A stretch of 64,000 nt of DNA from Somniosus microcephalus (Eukaryota), in NCBI GenBank assembly GCA_052327205.1, contig CM126207.1, positions 76,880,001-76,944,000 on the forward strand, read 5' to 3'. The notes under the pieces are model-generated. The model had not been told where the DNA came from and ran no database searches. It was given only the letters and a program-made list of their open reading frames with translations. Position 1 is the stretch's first letter; each line of letters starts with the position of its first letter. Made by a program: the position numbers and the translations under genes. Shown piece after piece: positions 10,441 through 42,012 of the stretch.

Positions 10441-11332
10441 ATTCCATGACCACCTCAGGAGGAGGAAGAGGAGGAGCAGGAGGAGGAAGAAGAGGTGGAG
10501 GAAGGGAGGAGGCAGGCAGCAAATCCGCATTCCGGACGAACTGTCTGTGAGCACATCATCAGACTCCGGTTCCCCTGAATGAAACCCCAGATCCCCGTTG
10601 CTCAACACATCCCCACCTTACCATTCCTCTGGCACGGAACATCACAGCGTCACCTTGGGCACAATGCTGAATGAAAGCCACCACAAAACAATCATTCCAA
10701 ATATAATTTATAGATGATTAATTCCAATATTACATTACAAAGTCAGCTAATCACCCTTGTGCATTCCCTTAGGCCGCGATTTTCTCAGCGGTGTCAGGAT
10801 TGGGGCAGGACAGCTGGTTTCCGGGTTCCAGTCCCGCCCCCAGCTGCCTCCGTCTGCAGACGTGATGTTCCCTTGATTGGCCTTGTTGAGCCCGCCCTGC
10901 AGGCTTACCAGCCAATTAACAGGAGCAGGTTTCCTACACGCTGTCTGTTACATTGTTATAATATCACATCGTTAAATGGAACTACTTTGGTATGGAACTA
11001 CTTTGGTATGGTGTAGTTATATTGCTATGTGGCACACTGTGCATGGGCAGTGCACAGTGCAGCGTTGGACATCTTGTATCACTCCGCACCATGCGGCAGC
11101 ACTGCAACAAAAGCAAGAATACAGCTAAGTAAAAGCACTAACTAAAAATGAACTAAAAGTGTCTGTAATATATATAGTATAAGAACACAAGGAGACACAA
11201 CATGGTGGCAGCGGTATAAGCGAGTACAAATTCTGCTATACGAACTACGAATAAGACGAAAAGTGATTTTATGAGCTGATTGTGAGTGCCGGTGTCTGCT
11301 GTGATTGAAAGTGAATCGTACGGGAAACTAAA

Positions 11333-12385
11333 ATGATGGCTGCCGCTGCACTGACTGTGCAAATGCAACCCCTCATGAACTGGGAAGCAGACGATATAGT
11401 AGAAGTATTCCGCAAGTTCAAACAGAAATGTGAGCTTACATTCAAAAGCTTCCTGAAGGGTACTACCAATGAGGAAAAGGTTAGTTACATTCTGTTGTGG
11501 GCAGGAGAAAAAGGCCTAGATTTGTATAATAGCTGGAGTTTGACTGAAGAGGAAAAGGAAAACCCAGTGACAATTTTTGATAAATTCAGCAACCATCTAG
11601 AGCCTAAATCCAATCACCGTATACACAGATACAAATTCCAGAGTCTAAGACAGGAACCCAGTGAAACAGCTGACAATTTCCTGACAAGGCTGAAAAATGA
11701 AGCCAGCAAGTGTAAATTTAAGGAAATGGAGGAAAGGCTTGTGGACCGGCTAATATGGGGGTCAGCGCATGTAGAGGTACAAAAAGCCCTGATAGGAAAA
11801 GAAAAGCTCGGAATAACAGAGGCTATAGATACTGCAAGAGCTCATGAAGCCATGAAGCAGCAAATGAAAACGCTGATTTCTCAAACGGCTGACATGCGGA
11901 CGGCTTCTGAGACGGACAACAGAGTGGATGCAGTGAGAGAAAAGTACAACACACAAAGACATGCACATGACAACGGGGGAAACATGTGCAGAAATTGTGG
12001 AAGACCGCACAATTACACAGACAAGAGGAAATGTCCAGCATATGGAACAAGCTGCAACGCATGTGGCAAACTAAACCACTGGGAAAAGAGGTGTAGAACG
12101 AAGAAAGGAGGAACATACATCAAAAACAAAGGCGGACAGCAGAACCAGAGAAAGAAACACAATATCCATGCCATGGATGAGCAGGATGATGATGATGATC
12201 ATGACAATGCACTAAACATCGAAACCATAAAGATACAGCTTCACGAGAATGTCCAGAGCGGAAAATACTCTGAGGAGAGAATTGCACACCATCATCCAAA
12301 TCAAAAAAAAGGTCAAAGATCGGCCCACAACCATCAACTTAAAGTTGAAGCTGGACACGGGCTCATAGCAATATTCTCCCATTGA
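11333..12385 (+). CDS. gag: Gypsy Gag with CCHC knuckles; frameshift at an A-run (~12304) before the protease
   Basis: CRNCGRPH...C and CNACGKLNHWEKRC; VKLDTG protease motif follows in another frame near 12340. Confidence 0.82.
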   Translation: MMAAAALTVQMQPLMNWEADDIVEVFRKFKQKCELTFKSFLKGTTNEEKVSYILLWAGEKGLDLYNSWSLTEEEKENPVTIFDKFSNHLEPKSNHRIHRYKFQSLRQEPSETADNFLTRLKNEASKCKFKEMEERLVDRLIWGSAHVEVQKALIGKEKLGITEAIDTARAHEAMKQQMKTLISQTADMRTASETDNRVDAVREKYNTQRHAHDNGGNMCRNCGRPHNYTDKRKCPAYGTSCNACGKLNHWEKRCRTKKGGTYIKNKGGQQNQRKKHNIHAMDEQDDDDDHDNALNIETIKIQLHENVQSGKYSEERIAHHHPNQKKGQRSAHNHQLKVEAGHGLIAIFSH

Positions 12386-12551
12386 GACTGTACCAGCAGA
12401 TTTTCCCGAAAACCTGAGAGAAGATGCCTACCCGAAAAGCAGTTGTTTAAAGGCAAGTAATGTCACGCTGACAGCATACGGGGGGAGTGAGATTAAACAA
12501 CTCAGAATAACCTTTATCAAAGGGACACATAAAAGAAAGAGCATCAACTGC

Positions 12552-14016
12552 ATGTTCTATGTCACCGACACTGAAGGGCCAGCGATCCTGGGATTAAACA
12601 GCTGCGAGAAGTTGAGATTGACCTCAGCGCATCACGAGCTGACGGAAACGTCACTGAAGAGAGACAGCAACACCCCACTGGAGAACCGCCCACAAATCAA
12701 GAGTATAAAAGACTTGATAGGCATGTATCCGGAATGTTTCGATGATACAGTGGGATGTTTCGGAGATTTCCAATACCACATCACCATCGATCCAGAGGTA
12801 AAGCCCGTTATCCATGCTCCACAAAAAGTACCCATCGAGCCGAAGACAAAGCTTGAAAGAGAGCTAAAGGAGATGGAAGAAAAGGGAGTGACCGTAAAGG
12901 TCACTGAACCCACAGACTGGGTAAACTCAATTGTGGTACGAGAAAAGCCAAACGGGCGTCTCAGAATATGTTTGGACCCCAAAGATCTAAACCAGGCAAT
13001 AAAGAGGGACCACTATCCCACCCCAACGCTAGAGGAGATTACGCTATCACTGGCAGGAGCCAAGGTTTTCTCAAAACTAGATGCCAGAAATGGATATTGG
13101 AACGTGAAGTTGGATGAGGAATCAACAACACTGACAACATTCAACACACCATTTGGGCGTTACAAATTCCTGAGGCTACCATTCGGGTTAAAGGTCAGTC
13201 AAGATATCTTTCAACAGAAAGTAGACGAGACATACAGAGGCTGTGAAGGAGCTATAGGAATAGCTGATGATATTCAGATCTATGGAGCAGATGAAAGAGA
13301 CCATGACATGCACCTACATGAGGCCATGGAGCGCACCAGGAAGGCTGGCATCAAGTTAAATGCAAATAAGTGCATAGTTAAAGTCAAGGAATGCCAATTC
13401 TTCGGTATGATTTATACACCAGAGGGAGTCAAGCCAAGTCCAGAGAAGATTGCGGCAATTGCTGAAATGAAACCACCCAAAGATAAGAAAGAGCTGAGGA
13501 GTTACCTCGGCTTGGTCCAATACATGAGTTCTTTCATCCCACACATGTCGGAACATACAACAAATCTCAGAGAGCTATTGAAAGAAGACGCCGAATACCA
13601 ATGGTCTGAATCACACAAAAGGAATTTCAAACAACTTCAAGAACTGTTGTGCAAAGAAACAAGTCTGTCATATTATGACAGAAGAAAACCAGTCACTCTG
13701 CAAGTAGACGCTTCTAGCAGAGGACTAGGGGCAGCTCTGGTGCAGGAAGGAAAGCCGATAGCTTTCGCATCAAAGGCCTTGACGTCAGCCGAGACGAGAT
13801 ACGCCAACATAGAAAGAGAACTATTAGCAGTAGTGTATGGATGCGAGAAATTCCATACATACCTATATGGCAGGCGATTTACAATAGAGAGTGACCATCA
13901 TCCACTAGAACAGATCTATAAGAAGAATCTGTGCAAAGCGCCTGCAAGACTGCAAAGGCTACTTCTAAGACTCCAAAGCTATGAATTCACGCTTAAATAT
14001 AAGCCAGGAAAGGAAA
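12552..14016 (+). CDS. pol: Gypsy Pol (RT and RNase H), truncated by assembly gap
   Basis: LRICLDPKDLN, FSKLDARNGYW, RLPFG, IADDI, LQVDAS, YANIERELLA, ESDH. Confidence 0.9.
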
Positions 14017-14516
14017 NNNNNNNNNNNNNNNNNNNNNNNNNNNNNNNNNNNNNNNNNNNNNNNNNNNNNNNNNNNNNNNNNNNNNNNNNNNNNNNNNNNN
14101 NNNNNNNNNNNNNNNNNNNNNNNNNNNNNNNNNNNNNNNNNNNNNNNNNNNNNNNNNNNNNNNNNNNNNNNNNNNNNNNNNNNNNNNNNNNNNNNNNNNN
14201 NNNNNNNNNNNNNNNNNNNNNNNNNNNNNNNNNNNNNNNNNNNNNNNNNNNNNNNNNNNNNNNNNNNNNNNNNNNNNNNNNNNNNNNNNNNNNNNNNNNN
14301 NNNNNNNNNNNNNNNNNNNNNNNNNNNNNNNNNNNNNNNNNNNNNNNNNNNNNNNNNNNNNNNNNNNNNNNNNNNNNNNNNNNNNNNNNNNNNNNNNNNN
14401 NNNNNNNNNNNNNNNNNNNNNNNNNNNNNNNNNNNNNNNNNNNNNNNNNNNNNNNNNNNNNNNNNNNNNNNNNNNNNNNNNNNNNNNNNNNNNNNNNNNN
14501 NNNNNNNNNNNNNNNN
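14017..14516. other. Assembly gap (500 N)
   Basis: Run of N. Confidence 1.
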
Positions 14517-14614
14517 AGAGCGCGAGCGGGCGGGGAGTGAGAGAGCGCGAGCGGGGGGGGAGAGAGAGTGCGAGCGGGGGGGAGAGAGCGCGTGAGCGGG
14601 GGGGGGAGAGAGCC

Positions 14615-20900: not shown

Positions 20901-22141
20901 CAAGACCATCTAGTAATTTTGTGTATCTTCGGTAGGTATGTGAATATACATAAATGTACGGACTTGCCATGGATAAACAGTACACACATCAATTGTAGCC
21001 TTGCCAATCTTAGTATATTTCCTGTATTATAGAGGATGTATAAATTGTGTCTTTTTTATACTACAACTGTTTTAGGACAATTTCTACTTTTCACATTACT
21101 TGCCAGGGTTATTCTTTAATAGTTTTCGGTAGTAACTACTTGCAAGTTTTATTTACTGTGAAGTAAAATGACCTATATCCATCATCTATCTCCTTGAAAA
21201 GGAAAACACCTTCAGGAATAAATCATTTTCATGGTGGAGCAGAGAAAAGTCAGTGTAATCTACATTGCTAATATTAGTTACTGTTGTTTAAAGTCTTGCA
21301 GTGATAAAATATACTTATCTTTCTCAAACACTCCTGATATTTATTAACGTATTACTATAAAAAGTAATTCATTGTTGTAAAAGGGTGCATTATAATGGGA
21401 TGTGTTGAGTCTGTGGTTTCAATTGCAGTTATACTGAATAACAGGACACAGACTACAGAAGTAAGTAAACAGGTCTTTAGTGATTGAGGGTCAGGGCTGA
21501 ACTGGGATACACTTTGCTCCGCAGGGTTTATATACCGGTGTGGTCACCACCGGTACTACAATGTACAGGAGCCATCAAAAAGTAGTCCATCACCTTAAGG
21601 TATCCTCTTAAGGTGGTACAGGTTACATACACTACAGTTCCTCCCCTTTTAGCTTAACAGTGTACACCCCAAATTAAACATTACATGGATAACATATATA
21701 CAATTTACACACAACTGTTCAAAGATTCAGACTCTGAGGAGGCCTCCTGATCCGGACCGGATAATGCCTTTCAGGGGTCTCTGGTTCTCGTTGCTGGGGT
21801 GACTCATCCACTTAATCTCCTATGGATTGAACATCATCAGGTACGTTCGAGTCTGAGGTAGATGCTACAGGTTCAATAAGTTCTTCAACTGGTGTCTCTG
21901 CCGTAGACATGGGGTCGACCCTTGTTCTTGATTCCACAAGTTGGTCAGCATGACGTCGTATTACGTTCTCTCCAACGTCTACCGTGTACATCAAGGGTCC
22001 TTGTCATGCATGAATTGTTCCAGGTTGCCATTTACCATCCCTATAGTCCCTGGCCAACACTGGTTGTCCTATTTCGAAACTACGAGTGGCCTTGTTATTT
22101 ACATGCTGGAATTGCTTGTTTTCGACTTCCCTTCGCACATT

Positions 22142-22839
22142 GGCCTAGAAATTCAGTTGGCGCCGCGCCAGGGCTTTAGCGCCGGAAATTTAGCGCCGGC
22201 GCTAAGTCCCCCTGCGCGCGCCAAAAATTCAGTAGCGCCGCGCCCAAACGGCTGCCGGCGCTACAGGAGGGTGTCAGCGCCTCGAAATGGGCGCTGACTG
22301 CCGCATTGCGGCGCAATTCCGGCGCTGCGGCACCCGATGCGGTGCGGCAGGCTGGGGAAGTGCAGGCCTCCTCCTTCAGTTAAGGAGGAGCTGCCTGCAC
22401 CCGCCCGCTGACCGTTGAAATCTTGAAAAAAATGAGCCCGGCACCTCGGAGAAGTGCCGGGCTCACAGGCCAGACGCATCTGTTCCGCGGGGGGGGGTGG
22501 AGGAGTCCGGGGAGGGAGGTGCGGGCAGGCGGCCGGCGGGAAAGCGGCCGGCCGCCGCGCGACCTTAATGCGCCGGCGCTAACTCGCGTAGGACTCTGCT
22601 GAAACATCGTTAGTTGCGGCTGCCACGGGCGAGGCGGCCGCAACTCAATTTCGGCGTTGGGGCCCGTCACCACGGCAACCGGGACGCTGCGCACACCGAT
22701 GACGTCATCGGTGCTGGCGCAGCGCAACCGGTCTAACGCCGATGGCAGGGCCCCACTGAATTTACAAACCGGCCATAACTCCGGCGCTAGGCCCTCTAGC
22801 GCCTCAAATGGGGCGCTAACCCTACTGAATTTTCAGCCC
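22142..22839. mobile_element. GC-rich Harbinger-type MITE
   Basis: GGCCTAGAAATTCAG / CTGAATTTTCAGCCC termini, TSD ATT; interrupts the integrase. Confidence 0.82.
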
Positions 22840-22990
22840 ATTGGGTTTTAACAAATCCAACCGGGACTGCAACCTTCTGTTATAGAACATTATGGCAGGG
22901 CTTTGATTTGTCACTGAATGCGTGGCGTTTCGATACGCCATCAGGAAATTGTCCACCTTGTGTTGTAGTGGAATATGGTCTTCACTCATG

Positions 22991-23794
22991 GGGCTAGATT
23001 TTCAGTTGCTTGCGCCAGCAGTTAGCGCCTTAAGAGAAGTAATTTTCGGGCGCTATGCGTGTAGCGCCCGGGCGCAGCGCAGTTTGCGCCCCGCCCCAAA
23101 TTAAGTTGCCTGTTAGCGCCGGCGCAAAGTTTAGCGGCCGCCCGGATGCGCACGCAGAAAATGACGTCACATCCTCGTGCAACGCCCTTTGGCCGCCCCG
23201 AATCCAAACTTCAGTCGGACCGCCCCATTGTGCGGCTGGCGTCCAGAGCGTTTGTAAAATGGAACGCAACACACCCTGGGGAGCGCAAATTAAAGGGCAC
23301 TCCTCCTGCACTATAAACGGCAGTCTGCATGTGTTGTGTGGAAGGATGCAGTGTGTGTTGTTCTGAATGGCGNNNNNNNNNNNNNNNNNNNNNNNNNNNN
23401 NNNNNNNNNNNNNNNNNNNNNNNNNNNNNNNNNNNNNNNNNNNNNNNNNNNNNNNNNNNNNNNNNNNNNNNNNNNNNNNNNNNNNNNNNNNNNNNNNNNN
23501 NNNNNNNNNNNNNNNNNNNNNNNNNTGAAAAAAAACACATGCACCCTTCCCCTTTAAGAGCTCACTGGCACCAGAGTGTCTGCTGTGCGCTGCGCCCGAA
23601 CTCGGGCGCTGCGCTCTGCACCGCCGGCTTAGCGCCTAAAGATAGTAGTGGAACGCCTCTTTTAGCGCTCCACCAACCTCTTAGGGCGAAGCCACTGAAT
23701 TTCCGGCAAAGGGGCGCTACTTTGGGGCGGGCGCTAACTTCAGGCGGGCGCTAAGGTTAGCGCCCCAAAACTGTCTATACTGAAAATCTAGCCC
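22991..23794. mobile_element. Harbinger-type MITE (contains N gap 23373-23524)
   Basis: Perfect TIR GGGCTAGATTTTCAGT / ACTGAAAATCTAGCCC, TSD ATG. Confidence 0.85.
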
Positions 23795-24328
23795 ATGGCC
23801 TTTATCACCTTTTTGAACGTTTGAACAAATCTCTCGGCCAACCCATCTGTAGCCGGATGATATGGGGCAGATGTATAGTGTTTCACCCCATTCTTTTTCA
23901 TGAATTTCTGGAATTCTTCTGACACGAACTATGGTCCGTTGTCTGAACATATTTGCTCCGGCAACCCATTCCTTGCAAATATGGTTCTTAGAACTGCGAT
24001 CGTCTTCTCAGGGGTAGTGGTCGATATCTTAATCACTTCTGGCCATTTAGAATGTGCATCTACTGCTATCAAAAACATGGAATCCATGAATGGACCTGCA
24101 AAGTCGATATGCACACGTTGCCATGGGGCTGAAGGCCATTCCCACGGATGCAGCGGTGCAATTGGAGGTGCATTTTGAACTTTTTGGCACCCTGAGCAGC
24201 TTTTAGTCAGATCCTCTATTTGTTTGTCGATACCTGGCCACCACACATAAGCCCTAGCAAGGCTTTTCATCTTGACTCCCCCCAGATGACCTTCATGCAA
24301 TTCTTTCAGAACTCTCTCTCTTAATTTC

Positions 24329-24679
24329 GGTGGCATAGTGGTTAGCACTGTTGCCTCACAGCGCCAGGGACCCGGCTTCGAATCCGGCCTCGGGCGACTG
24401 TCTGTGTGGAGTTTGCACATTCTCCCCGTGTTTGCGTGGGTTTCCTCCGGGTGCTCCGGTTTCCTCCCACAGTCCAAAGATGTGCGGGTTAGGTTGATTG
24501 GCTATCATAAATTGACCCTTAGTGTTAGGGGGATTAAATACGTGGGGTTACAGGGATAGGGTGGGATATATGTTGGTGTAGGGGTTACGGGGATCGGGTG
24601 GGATATGTGTCGGTGCAGGCTCGATGGGCCGAAATGGCCTCTATCTGCACTGTGGCGTTTCTGTGATTCTGTGATTCTG
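24329..24679 (+). mobile_element. tRNA-derived V-SINE (HE1-like)
   Basis: A box GGTGGCATAGTGG, B box-like TTCGAATCC, V-domain TGTGTGGAGTTTGCACATTCTCCCCGTG...TTTCCTCCCACAGTCCAAAGA, CR1-like tail (CTGTGATT)n. Confidence 0.88.
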
Positions 24680-26326
24680 AATAATCACCCTTGTTCCATA
24701 CATCAATGTTCCTTGACATACGGGCAGCTGTTCTCGTCTGGCTGAGAATGCTGGTAACAGTGGTTCGCCATGTGCTGGCCATCCCTTCACTGTCAAGTCG
24801 TAGACCCGAGACAGTGTCGGGTCATTTCGGGTCTCTCTCTCAATACCCGCATTGGTGACTGGTAAGCATTCGATGATGGTCGAGTGAAACATCTCTACAG
24901 GGCCAACTGCCGGTGCCTCTTCCGCTGTAGGTAGTGGCAGGCATGACAGCCCATCAGCATTACCATGTTGCTTTGTACCTTTGAATTCAATATCATATTG
25001 ATGTGCCCCTAGGAAAAGGGACCATCTCTGAAGCCTCTGCGCCGTCATTACCGGAACACCCTTCTTAGGGTTGAAAATGGAAACCAACGGCTGGTGATCT
25101 GTCAGCAGCGTAAACTTTTGGCCTTGCAGGTAATGGTTAAATTTCTTAACTCCCCACACGAGGTTGAGAGCCTCCCTATCTATCTGGGCATAGTTGCGCT
25201 CAGCGGAGGTCAATGATCTGGATGCGAAAGCGACTGGCCTTTCCGAGCCATCTGGAAACTTATGTGAGAGCACTGCCCTGATACCATATGGAGAAACATC
25301 ACAAGCTAAGCGAATAGGCAGCGTTGGGTTAAAGTGAGCCAACACTTCCTTAGAGGTGATCAGTACTTTGCTCTTTTGAAAAGCCCGCTTACAATCATCG
25401 CTCCACTTCCATGGTATTCCCATTTGCAAAAGAGTGTTTAGCGGGTGTAACACCGTGGATAAATTTGGAAGAAACTCATGGTAATAGTTAACCAACCCGA
25501 GGAACGACCGCAACTGGGATACATTTTCCGGTGCAGGAGCTTTTTCAACAGCTTCGATCTTGTCAGGTGACTTATGGAGCCCCTCCCGGTCAATGACGTG
25601 GCCGCAGTACGAGATTCGCTTTTGAAAGAACTCGCATTTCTGGCGGTTAACTCTGAGCCCATATTCTTTCAATCTGATGAGCACCTGCTCCAAATTCGCG
25701 AGGTGATCATTATCGTTATCTCCTGTAATCAGGATGTCATCCAGGTAGCATTGTGTGCCTGGAATTCCCTGCAATACCTGCTCCATGGCCCTTTGCCAAA
25801 TCGCTGGAGCCGATGCCACTCCAAAAACCAGTCTATTATACTGATATAAGCCCTTATGCGTGTTGATCGTGAGATACTGACGTGATGCTTCATCAACTTC
25901 CATCTGTAGGTACGCCTGCGCCAGGTCTATCTTAGTGAAGTGTTTCCCGCCAGACAGCGAAGCGAAGATATCTTCAATCCGTGGAAGCGGATATTGCACC
26001 GTGTGAAGAACCGGATTAACAGTGATCTTGAAATCGCCACAGATGCGAACCTTCCCAGGTTCCCCCGGCTTGTTGCTCAACGAACGCTTCATGACAGGAA
26101 CAATGGGTGTAGCCCATTCGCTCCAGTCCACCTTTGACAGTACCCCTGAATGTTCTAGCCCTTCCAGCTCTGCTTCCACAGCAGGTCGTATCGCATAAGG
26201 CACCGGTCTGGCTTTGAAAAATTTTGCGTTTGCATGTTCTTCAACCTTGATGGTTGCCGTAATTCCTTTCAGTGTTCCAAGTTCCTGTTGGAACACCTCC
26301 TTAGCATCGTCTAAGATTTTGGACAG

Positions 26327-27523
26327 TCATTTAGGTTTGGCGTCATCCTCCTTACAGGCATCTACAGTCAGTGCTTGTATGGAATGCCAGTCCACATTTA
26401 TTCTCCTGATCCATTCCCGTCCCAGTAGTGGCGGACCTCCATCAGGTAACACATACAAGCCCATTTTCTGACTTTCTTTACCATTGTAGACCACGTTTAC
26501 TTTTATCTTTCCTTTGGGGTATACTATTTGCCCCGTGTATGTTTTCAATACAATCTCCGTATCCCTCAGGGGAATGTGCGAGAATAACCTTTTGTAATCT
26601 TGCTTATTCATGACCGTTAATGCCGACCCAGTGTCCAATTCCATCTTCACTTGGACTCCTGCTATCCGAAGCGTGACCCAGATAGTTTGGTGGTCTGCTG
26701 TGTTACCCACATTATGTATTTTCAGACAACCCAGTTGCTTACTGCTGGAGTCTGAATCCATCTTCTGTTCATCCGAACTGTTCTCTGTCACCTTGTGTAC
26801 TTTTTTGTACTTCTCCTGCGGTGACTTTTTGCTGCTGGTCTTCTTTCCTGACCGGCATACTCTTGCTATGTGACCAAGTTTGCCACATTGCCTGCATTCT
26901 TTATCTTTGAACCAGCACTGGTTCTGGTCATGCGTTGTCCTTCCACAACGATAGCACTTTACTGTGCCCAATGCCATTTCATTGGTGCTGAATTCCAATG
27001 GCCTTTGCTGTATCTCTGCAGCGCCTCGTGCTGCTGCCTTGTGGGATGCTGCAATGCTGAAAGCTTTGTCCAGCGTAAGGTCCTTTTCCTCTAGCAGTCG
27101 CTTCTGGGTTCCTTCCCTTAGGAGCCCACACACAAACTTATCTCTCAGTGCGTCTGCTAGTCCTGTTCCGAACTGGCAGTACTTTGATAACTTGCGCAGT
27201 TCTGTTAGGAATTAAGCGTTGCTTTCTTCTTTAAGTTGAATTCTTTTGTAGAATTTAAATCGTTCCGCTATCAGCAGTGGCGTGGGGTTTAAATGCTCCT
27301 GCAGGATAGTAACAATATCCGCGAAACTCTTCCCTACCGGTTTGTCTGGTGTTACCAGGTTCCTTAATAACCCGTACGTCTTCGCACCCATTGAGTTTAA
27401 TAGGGTTAGTGCTTTCTTATCATCCGGTACCTCATTCGTTGTACAGTAAACTTCGATGCGTTCCACATAAGTGGCCCAATCTTCCACATCATTATCAAAA
27501 GCAGTGATGTTACCCATTTTTGG
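26327..27523 (-). pseudogene. gag: Gypsy gag-protease (premature stop near 27212)
   Basis: MPKMGNITAFD..., CYRCG..H..C and CRQCGKLGH..C knuckles, ELDTGS protease. Confidence 0.88.
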
Positions 27524-29071
27524 CATCCTTGCTGAGTTTCTCCTTCCCCTTTGGATATTCTTATTATTATTATTTTTTTTCAAACTGGCGGCTTTTCCCG
27601 CGCTTGGCGGCTTCTCCCGCGCTTGTCTTCTTCCCCCGCCGACTCAAAATGGCGATTTCCACGCTGTTGCCGTCCACGCCTCCCAGCGGTCCTTTATTTT
27701 TCCCTGCGCTGCTGCTCTTGTTCCCCCGCCGCTCCCGCAGTCCTTGTGGCCATAAACGCTTTTCTGGCTGCTGCGCGTCTCTGCCCGATTGCAGTCCGGC
27801 CCCTGACACCGGCTGCGGTTGTGTTCTCCGCCCTTTTCGTCGTTTTCCCTCCCCTTCTCCCAGTGACAACACGGCCGATTTCCCCCCCGTGCCGCTCGAT
27901 CGGGCTTGCCCGCCGCTGTCGTAGAAGGGATGCTCACTGATGCTTGACTTCGTGGTCAGCAAACCAACCCGGTTTCCGATGGCCTCCCGTGCAATGCAGG
28001 ATGTTGAGGGCGGATGCCCTTTTTCGATGCCCGTTTCTGAGGACGAAGCTTCCTTTGATGCAAAACTGCCGCAAGGTAAGATCAGACTCGTCGCCACTGT
28101 TGAGTCTGTGGTTTCAATTGCAGTTAGACTGAATAACAGGACACAGACTACAGAAGTAAGTAAACAGGTCTTTAGTGATTGAGGGTCAGGGCTGAACTGG
28201 GATACACTTTGCTCTGCAGGGTTTATATACCGGTGTGGTCACCACCAGTACTACAATGTACAGGAGCCACCAAAAAGTAGTCCATCACCTTAAGGTATCC
28301 TCTTAAGGTGGTACAGGTTACATACACTACAGGATGATTGCTATGAATCATATAGATAGGGCTCTAAATTATATGCAGCTCTGATACTATATTAATCTGA
28401 ATACCATGGATGAGTTTAAGTTATTATTCAATTATGCAGTATGTTGCTTTAAACCACAAATATGTCAGTGCACACAAAACAACTAGTCGGGTATTATGTA
28501 AGACACTGAATGCATTCATGTTAATAACACTTGTTTTGATTTAATGAGCAACACACTATAAACTATTTCTCATTACCCCTGTTAAAACTATATTTAAAAG
28601 TACATTTGTAACTGAATATTCAGTAAAGTCTCGACATTTTTTAATTCAATTCAAAACAAAAACATATTACAAAATGTGTGAGATTAGAAATTCTGTCTGA
28701 TCATTGACACTAATGAAGATTGTCTGTTCACTGGTTCCTGGATTAATCATGATAAAGCTGCTCCACTTGGGTAATAATGGCCGGAAATTTTTGTACCTGG
28801 GCGGGTCAGGTGCGAGCGGTCGGCGTGGCGGGTCGTGACCCGCTGTTGCTTCCATCCCACTGCAGGGATCGACTTTGTGATAATGGGGCCTATTAAGCCC
28901 ACCCTGCGCATTACCCGGCCCTATTAAATGGTGCGGGTCTGATGACGTCATCCACGACACGTTTTCAGCCGGGATATTTAAAGGAGCTATAGCCACATTG
29001 CATTTGAAGGTTCATCTAGGAGTGTGCAGTCACTGCACTGGAGGCTTTGATTGCTCCAAACAGTTGGAAAG

Positions 29072-37421: not shown

Positions 37422-37522
37422 TTCTGTGATCATTCTTGCAGCAACCTTGTCAAGGGGCTGATAGTTCAGTAATTGCTGGAGTCACTAGAGTCTTTGCCTG
37501 ATTTGTGAACCATTGTGACCAC

Positions 37523-40500
37523 TGTTGTGTATGTAATATGTGTGCTACTTTGAACCTATGGACAGGACTGCACTACTTGTTGGGCGTAGTGATACGCAGT
37601 ACCACTCCTGGCCATAGGGGTATAAATAGTACTGTGGGTACTGATCTCCCCTCAGTTCCCGCCTGTGGGCATGAAGTAAAGACCTACGTATAGTCCCTAC
37701 CTCCAACCAGTAAAGACCTGTTTGAGTTATACGTTTAAGTCTTTGTGTTAATTGTTCAATACAATACACATACTTAACACTGGCGACGAGTCAGGTTCTT
37801 ACCCTGCGGCAGTTGAAGAGAGGTTTCAAACATCACCACCCCACTAGAAGCGACAGGCTTTAGGACTCTGAAGCCTCCATCAGCGACTGAGCACTGGAGT
37901 GCAGCAAACATCCTGACAGCTTCCAGCGACTGACAGAAGTCTTTCTGCAGTTTCCTTGTTCAACCTAGGTGGTGGGGTAAGCCGTGCAGTGTTGGCTGCA
38001 AAGACAGGGCTGGGGAAGTTGGAGAAGATAAGGGCGATCGCAATCCCTGATAAGAGCCGCGTTGAAACACGCGAGCGGGTAAGCCAGAGCCCGGGAGGGA
38101 GCGAGCAAGAGCCGCGCGAGCGGGTGAGCCAGAGGCCGGGAGCCGCTTCAAGTGCGAGGCACAGCGCGGGCCAGCGATCGGGACCAAAGATAAGGGCCGC
38201 ACTCGGACTGAAAGGCGCGGCGGCTGCAGAAGCTCAAGGTGCGAGAGCCGCGGTGCACAGCGCGGGCTATCGATCGGAACCAAAGATAAGGGCCGCACTC
38301 GGGGGCTGAAGGGAGACGGCGTCGGGGGACGGGTGAAGACCGCCAAGCGCGGGAAAACTGCCATTTTGTGGGCGGAGGACGACGGCAAGAGCGGGAAGCC
38401 GCCATCTTTGATAACAAGTAAACAAAATAAAATCTGAGAAATTGCAAATCTACAATGCCTAAACACGGGAATATTAGCACCTTTGATAGTGACCTCGAAG
38501 ATTGGGCCATATATGTTGAAAGAGTAAAAAATTATTGTAAGGCCAATAAAATTCATGACCAAGATAAAGCTCTAACATTATTAAATTTAATGGGTGCGAA
38601 GACATACGGGCAATTGAAACACCTGTTATCACCAGATGAACCGGCGGATAAGACGTTCGATGAGATTGTTACTGTCCTGAAAGATCATCTAAACCCCACG
38701 CCGCTGATGCTAGCGGAACGATTTAAATTTTACGACAGAAGGCAGCTACAGCATGAAAGCAATGCTGAATATTTGCTGGAATTGCGTAAATTAGCGAAAT
38801 ATTGCCAGTTTGGAACGGGACTGACAGATGCACTACGAGACAAATTTGTGTGTGGTTTATTTAAACAGGATACACAAAAGCGACTGCTCGAGGAGAATGA
38901 GCTGACGCTTGAGAAGGCGGTCACTATGGCAGCAGCACACGAAGCCGCAGCGAGAGGCACGGCAGTAATGCAGCTACGGTCACCGGAGCTCAGTGCACAC
39001 AAATTGGGTGTGAGTTCTGGCAAATGTTATCGTTGTGGAAAGACAACGCATGATCAGAACCAGTGTTGGTTTAAAAACCAAGAATGTAGAACTTGTGGTA
39101 GGCTTGGACATATAGCTAGAGTATGCAGGTCAGGGAAGAAGACCAGCAACAAGAAGTCACCGCAAGGAAAATACGCAAAGGTACACAAGGTGACCGAACA
39201 GGAGTCCGATTCAGACGCTAGCAGTAATGAACTGGCTAGCTTAAGCTGTAATGAACTGGCTAGCTTAAGAGTACTCAACGCTGGTAAGGGTGCAGACCTC
39301 CAGACAATTTGGGTCACTCTTCAGATAGAAGGAGTCCAAGTAAAACTGGAATTGGACACTGGATCGGCATTGACGGTCATAAATAAAAAAGATTACGGAA
39401 AGTTATTCCAACATATTCCCCTACAGGATACGGGGATTATATTGAAAACATACACGGGGCAAAGAGTGTACCCCATCGGGAAAATAGAGGTTGCAGTGGT
39501 CCACAAGGGCGAAGACAGTCAAATAATGGACTTATATGTGATATCTGAAGGAGGTTCTCCACTACTAGGACGGGAGTGGATTAGGAAAATGAATATGGAC
39601 TGGCATTTCCTACAAACAATAACGAGTGAGAACTCGGTGAAGATAGTCGGCCCAGACTCTGGAACGGATGATGGTATGCCCAACTCAGGTGCAAAAGACA
39701 AAGTTTCAGCACAGAATTCCACTGAGCAACAACAACATAGTTTAACTGTGGATTCTGAGTCTGGCAAGTCTACTGATGTGCCCATTTCTGAGGGACACCG
39801 GGCTCGAACTCAACTCCATTTCAAACTACAACAGCAATTAGAACAAATGCTTCGCCGTTGTGAGCAAGAGTTGAATGCAACGAAAGAGTTCTTTGATACA
39901 GAGTTGGAGAATCTGGAAAGACAACAGAAGCAGCTGATGGAGAAAATGGAGCAGGAGCACACAAAACGTCTGATGTCAGAGGAGTTAACGGTCAGCCAAC
40001 TCCTGCATATGCTGAAGGACAGGACTCTGAAATGGGAAAAACTTGAACATGAACTTCAATATTCAAACGAAAGGGGTTCGGAGCTCTCAAAGGTTATTGG
40101 AAGAGCTGAGGTGGCAACACAGACTGAGATGACTGCAACAGAGCAGCCCTTGGATGCCAAAAGTACGCTGACTCACGTCAACGTAGAACAACAGACCGCT
40201 GAAACAGCTGCTCCGGTAGAGGGATTGAATAGTCCAATCAATCAATCTCCAAAAGAAGTTGAAGTAGTAAAATCTCAAATGAGGTCATTAGTAAACGACT
40301 TGCTGAAAGCCCAGAAAAAGCTGGATGAAGAGGTACGCATGAAGAAGTCTCTTCAGGAAAGATGTCTGGACTTGGAACAAAAGCTGGCTAACGCCCAGCT
40401 GGGTATGGAGGAAATAGAAGACCCTCTCGCTGGCCTAGATCAGGACGACACCGAATATTACTATGTCCTGTCCTGCCCAACTTGTAACTTCGACTCCCAC

Positions 40501-41244
40501 CATACAGAAATCATGGAGGAGCACCGAAAGTCTACGGAACATCGGGAGAAGGTGGCTCTACTACGGAAAAAGGAGGGAGAGAAGGAGGAACTGCGCATGC
40601 AGCTGGCAGCTGACAGTGGAGCCCAGAGAGTCTCCAAGAAGCAGAAAAGGAAAAGTCGAAACAGAAGATGACCCATCTGAACCATTATTACCTCTACCAG
40701 ATCACACACGTGGTCCCTCCGAACGGAGCCAATTCAGTTCGGAAGTTCAAACTGTTAAATCCATGGAAGGACTATTGAATGAGTCACTCCAGCAACGTGA
40801 ACCGACTCCACCACAGAGATTGAATCTGTGAACTGTTTTCCGCAGAGACTGAATCTGTGATCTGTTTTGACATGAAGTTATCTATGTATCTATGTTATTC
40901 TGTTATGTAAACCTGAAGTTATATATGTATATATGTTATTACGTTATGTTAAATGGGGAGATGACTGTAAAGCTAGGAAGGGAGGAATGTTGTGTATGTA
41001 ATATGTGTGCTACTTTGAACCTATGGACAGGACTGCACTACTTGTAGGGCGTAGTGATACGCAGTACCACTCCTGGCCATAGGGGTATAAATAGTACTGT
41101 GGGTACTGATCTCCCCTCAGTTCCCGCCTGTGGGCATGAAGTAAAGACCTACGTATAGTCCCTACCTCCAACCAGTAAAGACCTGTTTGAGTTATACGTT
41201 TAAGTCTTTGTGTTAATTGTTCAATACAATACACATACTTAACA
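37523..41244 (+). mobile_element. Young non-autonomous Gypsy-type LTR element lacking RT, RNase H and integrase
   Basis: 257-bp LTRs 37523-37779 and 40988-41244 (one mismatch), TSD ACCAC, PBS TGGCGACGAG at 37781, PPT AGGAAGGGAGGAA before the 3' LTR, TATAAA in LTR. Confidence 0.95.
38455..40671 (+). CDS. Chimeric Gag-protease fused to STK10/SLK-like and optineurin-like coiled coils and a zinc finger (738 aa)
   Basis: Two CCHC knuckles, LDTGS protease; then [15 protein letters not shown] (STK10-like), EELTVSQLL...TQTE...MKKSLQERC (OPTN-like), CPTC..H.....H, basic C-terminus; no stop codons. Confidence 0.85.
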
Positions 41245-42012
41245 ACCACAGGGTAATTTCCCGCATCACAGGAAATGGCCCAGCACTAACGACTTAGTGA
41301 ACATCTCAGCTTTCAACGTCATCCTCTTGTCAGATGCCTTACTGAGCATACATTTGGTGAAACCATCTGCTCCTGTTACGTTCACTCAATATACACCTAA
41401 GGTAGAGTTCAGCAGCAGTAATTGGCTGACCTAAGGCAGTTGCATTGCTTCCCAGTTCATTTTCTTCTCCATTACTTTCAATGGCTGTTCTCAGAGGTTG
41501 GAATAATTCTACTTTTACGGATGTAATGATCTACTTCCTTTTCCTAGCTCCTGGTGAATTCCTTGTAATTTGCTTTAGTGCAAAGATGATCTTTGAAGAA
41601 CTCGCTTTCTATGAGTGTATCTCTGTACTGTAGCCCAGGGAATACAACGTCAGGAATGTTTTGCACTGGCTCTTCCCTGTAGCTCTGCAGATGTCAAATT
41701 GTTTGAAGTGTTGCTCTCATTCAACCTTTCATGGGAGATTTTAATTACCCCCAAATAAACTGGCAAGAAGATGTAGCGAAAGGGATACAGCAAATTAAGA
41801 TTTTACAATGTCTGCGATTTTGCCTCCCTGGGCGAGTTCATGGCGGGAGAGGTCGGTGGCGGGCCGCAAGCCTGTTGATGTCTTCACCCCACTGAACAAG
41901 ATCTTACCTTAATGGGCCTTGTTAAGCCCGACCGGCGCGTTACCTGGCCCAATTAAAAGGTGCGGGTCTGGTGACGTCAGCACTGACGCGTTTGGTGCTG
42001 GTATATTTATAC

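Follow-up and report, generated by a model that had tools for sequence, protein, structure and literature searches.

The element and its contents

Positions 38455-40671 of the 64,000-nucleotide stretch of DNA analysed here (the window) translate as a single frame of 738 amino acids with no internal stop, as the original prediction had read it, and this frame sits inside a complete, young LTR element flanked by a 5-bp target-site duplication (TSD). Paired TG...CA LTRs, a primer-binding site (PBS), a polypurine tract (PPT) and the TSD, all of them structural hallmarks of Ty3/Gypsy elements, are present. The features are as follows.

37518..37522, + strand: left TSD copy, ACCAC, 5 bp (sequence)
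37523..37779, + strand: 5' LTR, 257 nt, TG...CA (100% identical to the 3' LTR)
37781..37790, + strand: PBS, starting TGG (sequence)
37791..38454, + strand: 5' leader, GC-rich, internally repetitive, differing among copies (sequence)
38455..39144, + strand: Gypsy-type gag, aa 1-230, two CCHC knuckles (Pfam; omega 0.13-0.18)
39313..39597, + strand: aspartyl protease (LDTGS), aa 287-381 (Pfam; omega about 0.3 in most fits)
39624..39794, + strand: 3' part of STK10 exon 9, two pieces with an in-frame 69-nt deletion between them (86-87% nucleotide identity to host)
39790..39971, + strand: STK10 exon 11 (3' part) and exon 12 (5' part), PKK coiled coil (92% nucleotide identity to host; Pfam PKK)
39964..40415, + strand: OPTN exons 5 (part), 6, 7 and 8 (part), spliced, central coiled coil (80-91% nucleotide identity to host, C17; protein match)
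40405..40422, + strand: exact 18-nt piece of STK10 exon 8, 3' of exon 12 and hence in permuted order (sequence comparison)
40423..40668, + strand: jaz/U1-type C2H2 finger, captured, diverged and now acidic, with a basic C-terminal tail (77-80% nucleotide identity to sister fingers)
40663..40783, + strand: untranslated STK10 remnant, the exon 8 end joined by splicing to the exon 9 start (86-88% nucleotide identity)
40784..40831, + strand: remnant of the integrase C-terminal tail (similar to that of the window's pol-bearing relative)
40975..40987, + strand: PPT (sequence)
40988..41244, + strand: 3' LTR, 257 nt (identical to the 5' LTR)
41245..41249, + strand: right TSD copy, ACCAC (sequence)

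The Pfam matches agree with the earlier reading of a Gag-protease polyprotein: the CCHC knuckles and the aspartyl protease were both recovered, each under its curated cut-off, and reverse transcriptase (RT), RNase H and integrase gave no match in the 738-aa ORF. A relative at 21403-28332 of the window encodes protease, RT, RNase H and integrase in that order and is 73-78% identical to the element at the nucleotide level. The element's Gag and protease are thus related to those of a lineage with the canonical pol order, its own RT and integrase being missing. Neither an env-like domain nor an env-like ORF occurs in the element, none was detected in the pol-bearing relative, and the window contains no tRNA gene.

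About 350 aa of host-derived sequence accompany the Gag-protease region, and both host resemblances recognised in the original prediction hold up in protein and DNA comparisons. Pfam PKK matches aa 458-508 above its cut-off (E 5e-8), and a protein search with aa 440-738 recovered shark optineurin (OPTN; 69% identity, E 8e-51) and shark STK10 (up to 81%); all 120 matches listed, out of 184, are OPTN or STK10/SLK-family kinases. The two shark matches mark the host as a shark-like fish. A PDB sequence search with the cargo gave no match. In this genome the STK10 gene maps to C8, with 18 coding exons, and the OPTN gene to C17 (exon numbers throughout count coding exons as mapped in this analysis). 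Against the host STK10 DNA, the exon 9 pieces of the element are 86-87% identical and exons 11-12 are 92-93% identical, with the 11/12 junction spanned (near 39877 in the element); against host OPTN, exons 5-8 match at 80-91% and three exon junctions are spanned. The host exons are intronless, joined in frame, and stand in place of internal ORFs. Beyond the earlier reading, aa 391-445 also derive from STK10, and an STK10 exon 8/9 remnant followed by the integrase tail lies 3' of the stop codon. The STK10 exons therefore appear in the order 9-11-12 ... 8-9, out of their genomic sequence. The OPTN stretch retained corresponds to aa 226-384 of optineurin P0003.

The donor is assigned to STK10 and not SLK because the cargo of sister copies, described below, matches the STK10 locus on C8 at 99% identity, which rules out SLK. 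A 63% paralog is present at another place on C8.

A young, numerous and transcribed family

Two exact 26-mers have 3,248 and 3,939 matches in the genome, and the element family therefore numbers at least 3,248 copies. LTR pairs were present in 17 of 20 fetched copies, with 17 differences in 4,353 paired sites, and every non-tandem copy having both LTRs (16 of 16) was flanked by a 5-bp TSD. Among the 30 best DNA matches, which favour close copies and include the window copy itself, 25 have an intact ORF, and 115 of 150 matches to the zinc finger fall in open frames of at least 700 aa.

RNA reads span the whole element in both of two runs, which carry one species label, possibly other than that of the window. 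In run X23 the first mates lie mostly on the minus strand, which fits sense RNA in common stranded libraries, and in X24 the orientation is mixed. The family is transcribed, and a protein product is predicted. Its recent, dispersed insertions imply a helper that mobilises the element in trans; no autonomous helper was found.

Sister copies and successive captures

The history of the cargo is legible in related copies. Loci L051-L060, the ten best of 98 matches to the STK10 stretch absent from the window copy, share one layout: Gag-protease, an RT stub, STK10 385-704, STK10 290-388 and an integrase tail, in a single frame where intact. The two STK10 segments meet at the exact exon 12 donor joined onto the exact exon 8 acceptor, that is, at a back-splice. 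A 24-mer across this join is present in 29 of 29 loci (L032-L060) and, allowing up to one mismatch, has 1,113 matches genome-wide, with 0 for the control. It occurs in 0 of 30 window-type copies, the window copy keeping the permuted exon order without the junction itself.

A further group (L032-L050) shares a 414-nt deletion in 18 of 19 loci, as judged by alignment start, and carries mostly obscurin Ig domains; L048 and copies related to it depart from this pattern at the 5' side. Other sisters likewise bear obscurin Ig domains or different coiled coils as cargo. Titin was rejected as the source of the Ig domains, the best matches being to obscurin (62% over 330 aa) in a search that took proteins up to 5,000 aa and so placed full titin outside its range. 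In the best 24 of 145 OPTN-bearing matches the order is invariably STK10, then OPTN exons 3-8, then STK10 exon 8 (24 of 24), and these loci also have the 414-nt deletion. A Pfam jaz search gave 150 scored matches, of which 30 were fetched and 28 proved to be element copies; fingers occur with the back-splice and without OPTN in L164-L173, and together with OPTN from L174 onward. OPTN exons 3-8 and the jaz-type finger are additions that followed STK10 and were subsequently trimmed. The order of events is inferred from shared junctions; in the cargo tree the window subfamily has 100% support and its place among the OPTN types is weakly supported (55%).

The captured finger is classed as jaz on the basis of its sister fingers, which exceed the Pfam zf-C2H2_jaz cut-off. 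As to its donor, a representative protein search returned only multi-finger proteins at 29-35%, a homolog search gave no match, and comparison with the Atlas pointed to zf-met/jaz clusters at 0.88-0.90, a lead only. The locus reached via PF21884, which we take to be DNAJC2-like, is not the finger donor. DNAJC21 is a candidate donor. J-domain exons that may belong to it adjoin a Brix gene at C1:2.67 Mb, and no finger exon was found near them in 400 kb containing three N runs. DNAJC21 is described as a J protein with two C2H2 fingers in PMC6710477.

Modules have probably also moved between elements. Measured between the window copy and the intermediates, synonymous distance is high in gag (dS 0.75-0.89) and low in the cargo (dS 0.16-0.18), and several of 20 further copies are mosaics combining modules of different types; for these reasons gag and the LTRs were probably swapped by recombination. 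One finger, 98% identical in nucleotides, rides on elements with a gag identity of only 73% (L157, L159).

Selection on the frame and on the cargo

Gag and protease are constrained, as the omega values listed above indicate; a single protease fit (L100) gave an omega of 1.00, at odds with the other three and probably non-converged. Downstream, the frame has been preserved through extensive remodelling. Relative to the intermediate, the window copy has deletions of 93, 69 and 318 nt, all three of them multiples of three, and neutral shuffles of the cargo acquire a stop in 94% of cases, the real cargo having none. The reading frame was kept open. A literature search for RNA decay as the cause of an open frame found no paper.

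At the amino-acid level the signal is fainter. Compared with the host, the STK10/OPTN cargo has an omega of 0.49 (p=0.006), and compared with four intermediates 0.51-0.64 (p 0.01-0.11); the OPTN part, at 0.46-0.56 (p 0.02-0.10), is more constrained than the rest. A permutation under the observed mutation spectrum counted 43 codon changes in the cargo against 48.2 expected (p=0.08), with p=0.14 when stops were left out and p=0.30 for STK10 alone. Ratios among 30 near-identical copies range from 0.28 to 1.76, there being too few changes to inform. Amino-acid constraint on STK10/OPTN is weak, and the codon-model omegas of 0.49-0.64 nonetheless indicate more constraint than expected of pure filler. 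Of the two signs in other copies that the original prediction named as counting against its functional reading, only one is seen: frameshifts are rare (2 of 30 top copies), but constraint at the protein level is weak.

The finger behaves differently. All four zinc ligands are kept and 15 of 19 other residues have changed (Fisher p=0.008), with an omega of 2.8-4.3 (p 0.04-0.10) and a shift in net charge from +4 to -3, in a post hoc test on 23-30 codons. Family ORFs end in a basic tail, which derives from either of two different sequences.

Selection likely acts here for the element, such that its RNA is translated almost to the end, with the basic tail last. The STK10 and OPTN coiled coils would then be mostly replaceable spacer, and the finger the best candidate for a protein-level role, possibly functional together with the tail. 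It is likely the element, and not the shark, that benefits from the cargo.

The alternative that survives best accepts the same history and makes the whole cargo a working protein module of the element: the coiled coils would oligomerise the Gag fusion, and the finger and basic tail would bind RNA or a partner and aid entry into helper-built particles. The constraint on OPTN, the pattern of kept ligands and altered surface in the finger, and the presence of the same finger on elements with divergent gags speak in its favour. Set against these are the near-neutral amino-acid change of the cargo, that of STK10 above all, the freedom with which cargo is swapped and deleted, and the post hoc nature of the finger evidence with its few codons. 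We regard such a module as possible and the spacer reading as better matched to the data.

The template of the STK10 capture

Summed, STK10 exons 8-12 amount to 1,245 nt, or 415 codons, and are stop-free. When L051-L060 are aligned to this sequence doubled as a circle, they extend from 281 to 1539, which is one lap plus 14 nt, at 98.6-99.2% identity in 9 of the 10 loci and 94.5% in one with a deletion. The lap is entered and left on one exon 9 word, and similar words occur in the pol-bearing relative at the RT start and in the integrase tail. The overlap at entry and exit in the sisters is 14 nt, and those at the OPTN joins are 9-13 nt.

Because the back-splice is exact, the cargo makes one lap and a single word is shared at both ends, a template switch onto circular RNA is the simplest reading, and a back-spliced circle, not a linear mRNA, was most likely the template of the STK10 piece. 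For window-type copies, which have lost the back-splice, a circular origin is likely by way of the junctions they share with the sisters. The original proposal that spliced host RNAs were captured by template switching and kept translatable is sustained by the exon junctions, the short shared words and the intermediates; its choice of template gives way to a probable circle in the case of STK10, and the STK10/OPTN join of the window copy is not an original switch point, being the product of the later 318-nt deletion.

RNA reads across the back-splice number 69 and 59 in the two runs. Reads across an element-specific deletion joint accompany them (125 and 83) and few reads (0-4) cross the joints between exons 9 and 10 and between exons 10 and 11, so that element transcripts explain the back-splice reads, which are accordingly no demonstration of a host circSTK10. 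This, together with the flanking introns, between which no inverted repeat was found, gives some room to a linear template, in which the permuted order would stem from a trans-spliced or tandem-duplicated transcript or from two extra jumps on an mRNA; Dong et al. (PMC4897178) caution that non-colinear joins have other possible origins. Several observations make such a template improbable. Every STK10 exon is present once in the 200 kb around the gene, jumps at random would be unlikely to land precisely on the donor of exon 12 and the acceptor of exon 8, and the cargo is exactly one period that begins and finishes at one word. Moreover, exons 8-12 form a 6.5-kb block with introns of 15.5 and 8.0 kb on either side.

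A proposed history

We therefore favour, with a probability of roughly 0.75, a young, high-copy, non-autonomous Gypsy family in which spliced STK10 and OPTN exons and a zinc finger replace RT, RNase H and integrase, with derivation of the STK10 piece from a circular RNA and movement by a helper both likely. The reverse transcriptase would have left the element RNA on a short shared word at the RT start, made one turn around circSTK10 (exons 8-12), and rejoined the element in the integrase tail on that word again. A 414-nt deletion would have come second. OPTN exons 3-8 and, separately, the jaz finger would then have been captured within the STK10 stretch, and the window subfamily would have arisen through recombination between sister types, more deletions that kept the frame, and replacement of gag and LTRs, the element likely being moved by the enzymes of a helper.

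A more speculative extension, which we offer only tentatively and think somewhat doubtful, is that this selfish family runs exon shuffling for itself: after the founding lap of a circular RNA it would sample mRNAs in frame, and the selected jaz finger with its basic tail would be a new, acidic-surfaced module that spreads among element families and aids replication or evasion of the host.

Least probable of all are domestication of the cargo and a host-directed decoy role in which the cargo, once released, binds the autophagy or innate-immunity partners of optineurin, as originally suggested, or those of STK10: the protease motif is intact and constrained, the family is transcribed, constraint within the cargo is greater on OPTN, and older intermediates still have a LIR-like motif, but the retained aa 226-384 of P0003 exclude the NEMO/TBK1-binding region (44-111), the LIR-like FVEI (185), the CC2-LZ/UBAN (497-590) and the OPTN finger (641-666), the LIR-like motif was lost en route to the most numerous type sampled, and a family of young copies scattered in their thousands looks selfish and unlike one domesticated locus. 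In the account given in PMC5027247, those same domains are the parts of OPTN that bind TBK1, ATG8 and ubiquitin, and a decoy role for the fragment is unlikely.

Relation to known systems

In these sharks, gene annotation, expression counts and circRNA calls will all be distorted by the thousands of sequences that resemble STK10, OPTN or obscurin. In its parts the element resembles the TR-GAG-type non-autonomous LTR elements of plants, which have LTRs, a PBS, a PPT and Gag (with protease) and no RT or integrase; that definition is not known to include host cargo, whereas the shark element holds a large one. It differs also from transducing retroviruses of the v-onc type, which belong to an env-bearing infectious lineage.

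LTR elements that capture pieces of several genes have been described in maize (Bs1) and in animals (PMC5131818, PMC13317346), as have circRNA pseudogenes near LTRs, and what is new here is a variant form of LTR-mediated gene capture. No account of the family, or of a circRNA lying in frame within an LTR element, turned up in a literature search whose scope excluded supplements and most subscription papers; the supplements of PMC4897178 and PMC5131818 may list comparable cases.

Among metazoan LTR-mediated retrocopies (Tan et al., 2016, PMC5131818), spliced host RNA likewise substitutes for internal ORFs, with microsimilarity at the switches; they are often in frame, some have several parents, and some pass through further non-autonomous cycles. 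They are, in contrast, few and young, and the word "circular" does not appear in that main text, whereas the shark chimera founded a large, recombining family with long-term maintenance of the frame. Maize Bs1, in the accounts of it in PMC5131818 and PMC13317346, is like the shark element an LTR element with partial exons of three unlinked host genes, a chimeric ORF and secondary retroposition; unlike it, Bs1 is present in 1-5 copies, and one of its pieces is out of frame. The shark family, with its animal host, its likely circular first template and living intermediates bearing other cargo, is an animal counterpart of Bs1 that is roughly a thousandfold more numerous. Its intermediate stages are still in the genome, and selection on captured host sequence is therefore measurable branch by branch.

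Related in origin are the circRNA-derived pseudogenes, such as the 33 mouse copies of circRFWD2, whose mechanism was called mysterious (Dong et al., 2016, PMC4897178), leaving open how circular RNAs are written back into genomes. Those pseudogenes share with the shark sisters a genomic non-colinear exon junction, the lack of a poly(A) and an association with LTRs. The sisters, unlike them, hold a full lap that continues the Gag-protease frame and is bounded by an RT stub and an integrase tail, with both switch points visible, in more than 1,100 copies, and template switching in a Gypsy particle thereby becomes a concrete, testable answer.

Other LTR elements in the window

Two further LTR elements lie in the window alongside the cargo-bearing Gypsy element:

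Window 21403-28332, minus strand: pol-bearing Gypsy relative with gag, protease, reverse transcriptase, RNase H and integrase.
Window 11315-14540, plus strand: second LTR-type element, whose ORFs measure 356 aa and 723 aa.

The pol-bearing relative, whose gag-protease shares 73-78% nucleotide identity with that of the cargo-bearing element, has LTRs that are 98% alike and is interrupted by stops and several insertions. The second element encodes both reverse transcriptase and RNase H within its 723-aa ORF and runs into an N block.

Host loci

The host OPTN gene (L084:4780-5370; G000:C17:85884780-85885370) contains two additional A's, one at the end of exon 5 and one at the start of exon 6, that disrupt its frame in the G000 assembly; the remaining exons are in frame, as are the element copies. 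These A's represent either an assembly error or a real allele. An STK10 3′ end lacking introns (L031; G000:C3:354656987-354660409) adjoins a LINE reverse transcriptase fragment and is likely an ordinary processed retrocopy. Elsewhere, a J-domain gene adjoins the Brix gene (G000:C1:2.42-2.82 Mb; L195-L234), where its first three exons are seen and no later exons were found across 400 kb containing three N runs.

Copies, cargo types and sequencing runs

At L141 (G000:C3:263214600-263224500), copies of the element are arrayed head-to-tail with a period of 3,368 nt over at least four units, neighbouring copies having single LTRs in common. At least half of the words of the host-derived cargo stretch are present in 11 of the sequencing runs X1-X12, under four species labels; in X11, short pieces at low depth are spread over gag, OPTN, finger and LTR.

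In the sister family L032-L050, most copies have obscurin Ig domains in frame inside the STK10 lap, the permuted run of STK10 exons, with ORFs exceeding 1,000 aa; L036 and L048 carry an additional insert with a CPTC motif. Two more cargo types occur in other copies: in L164-L173, finger-bearing copies devoid of OPTN, a Myosin_tail_1-like coiled coil that may be CGNL1-like, and in L157 and L159 a different coiled coil, riding on a gag of only 73% identity.
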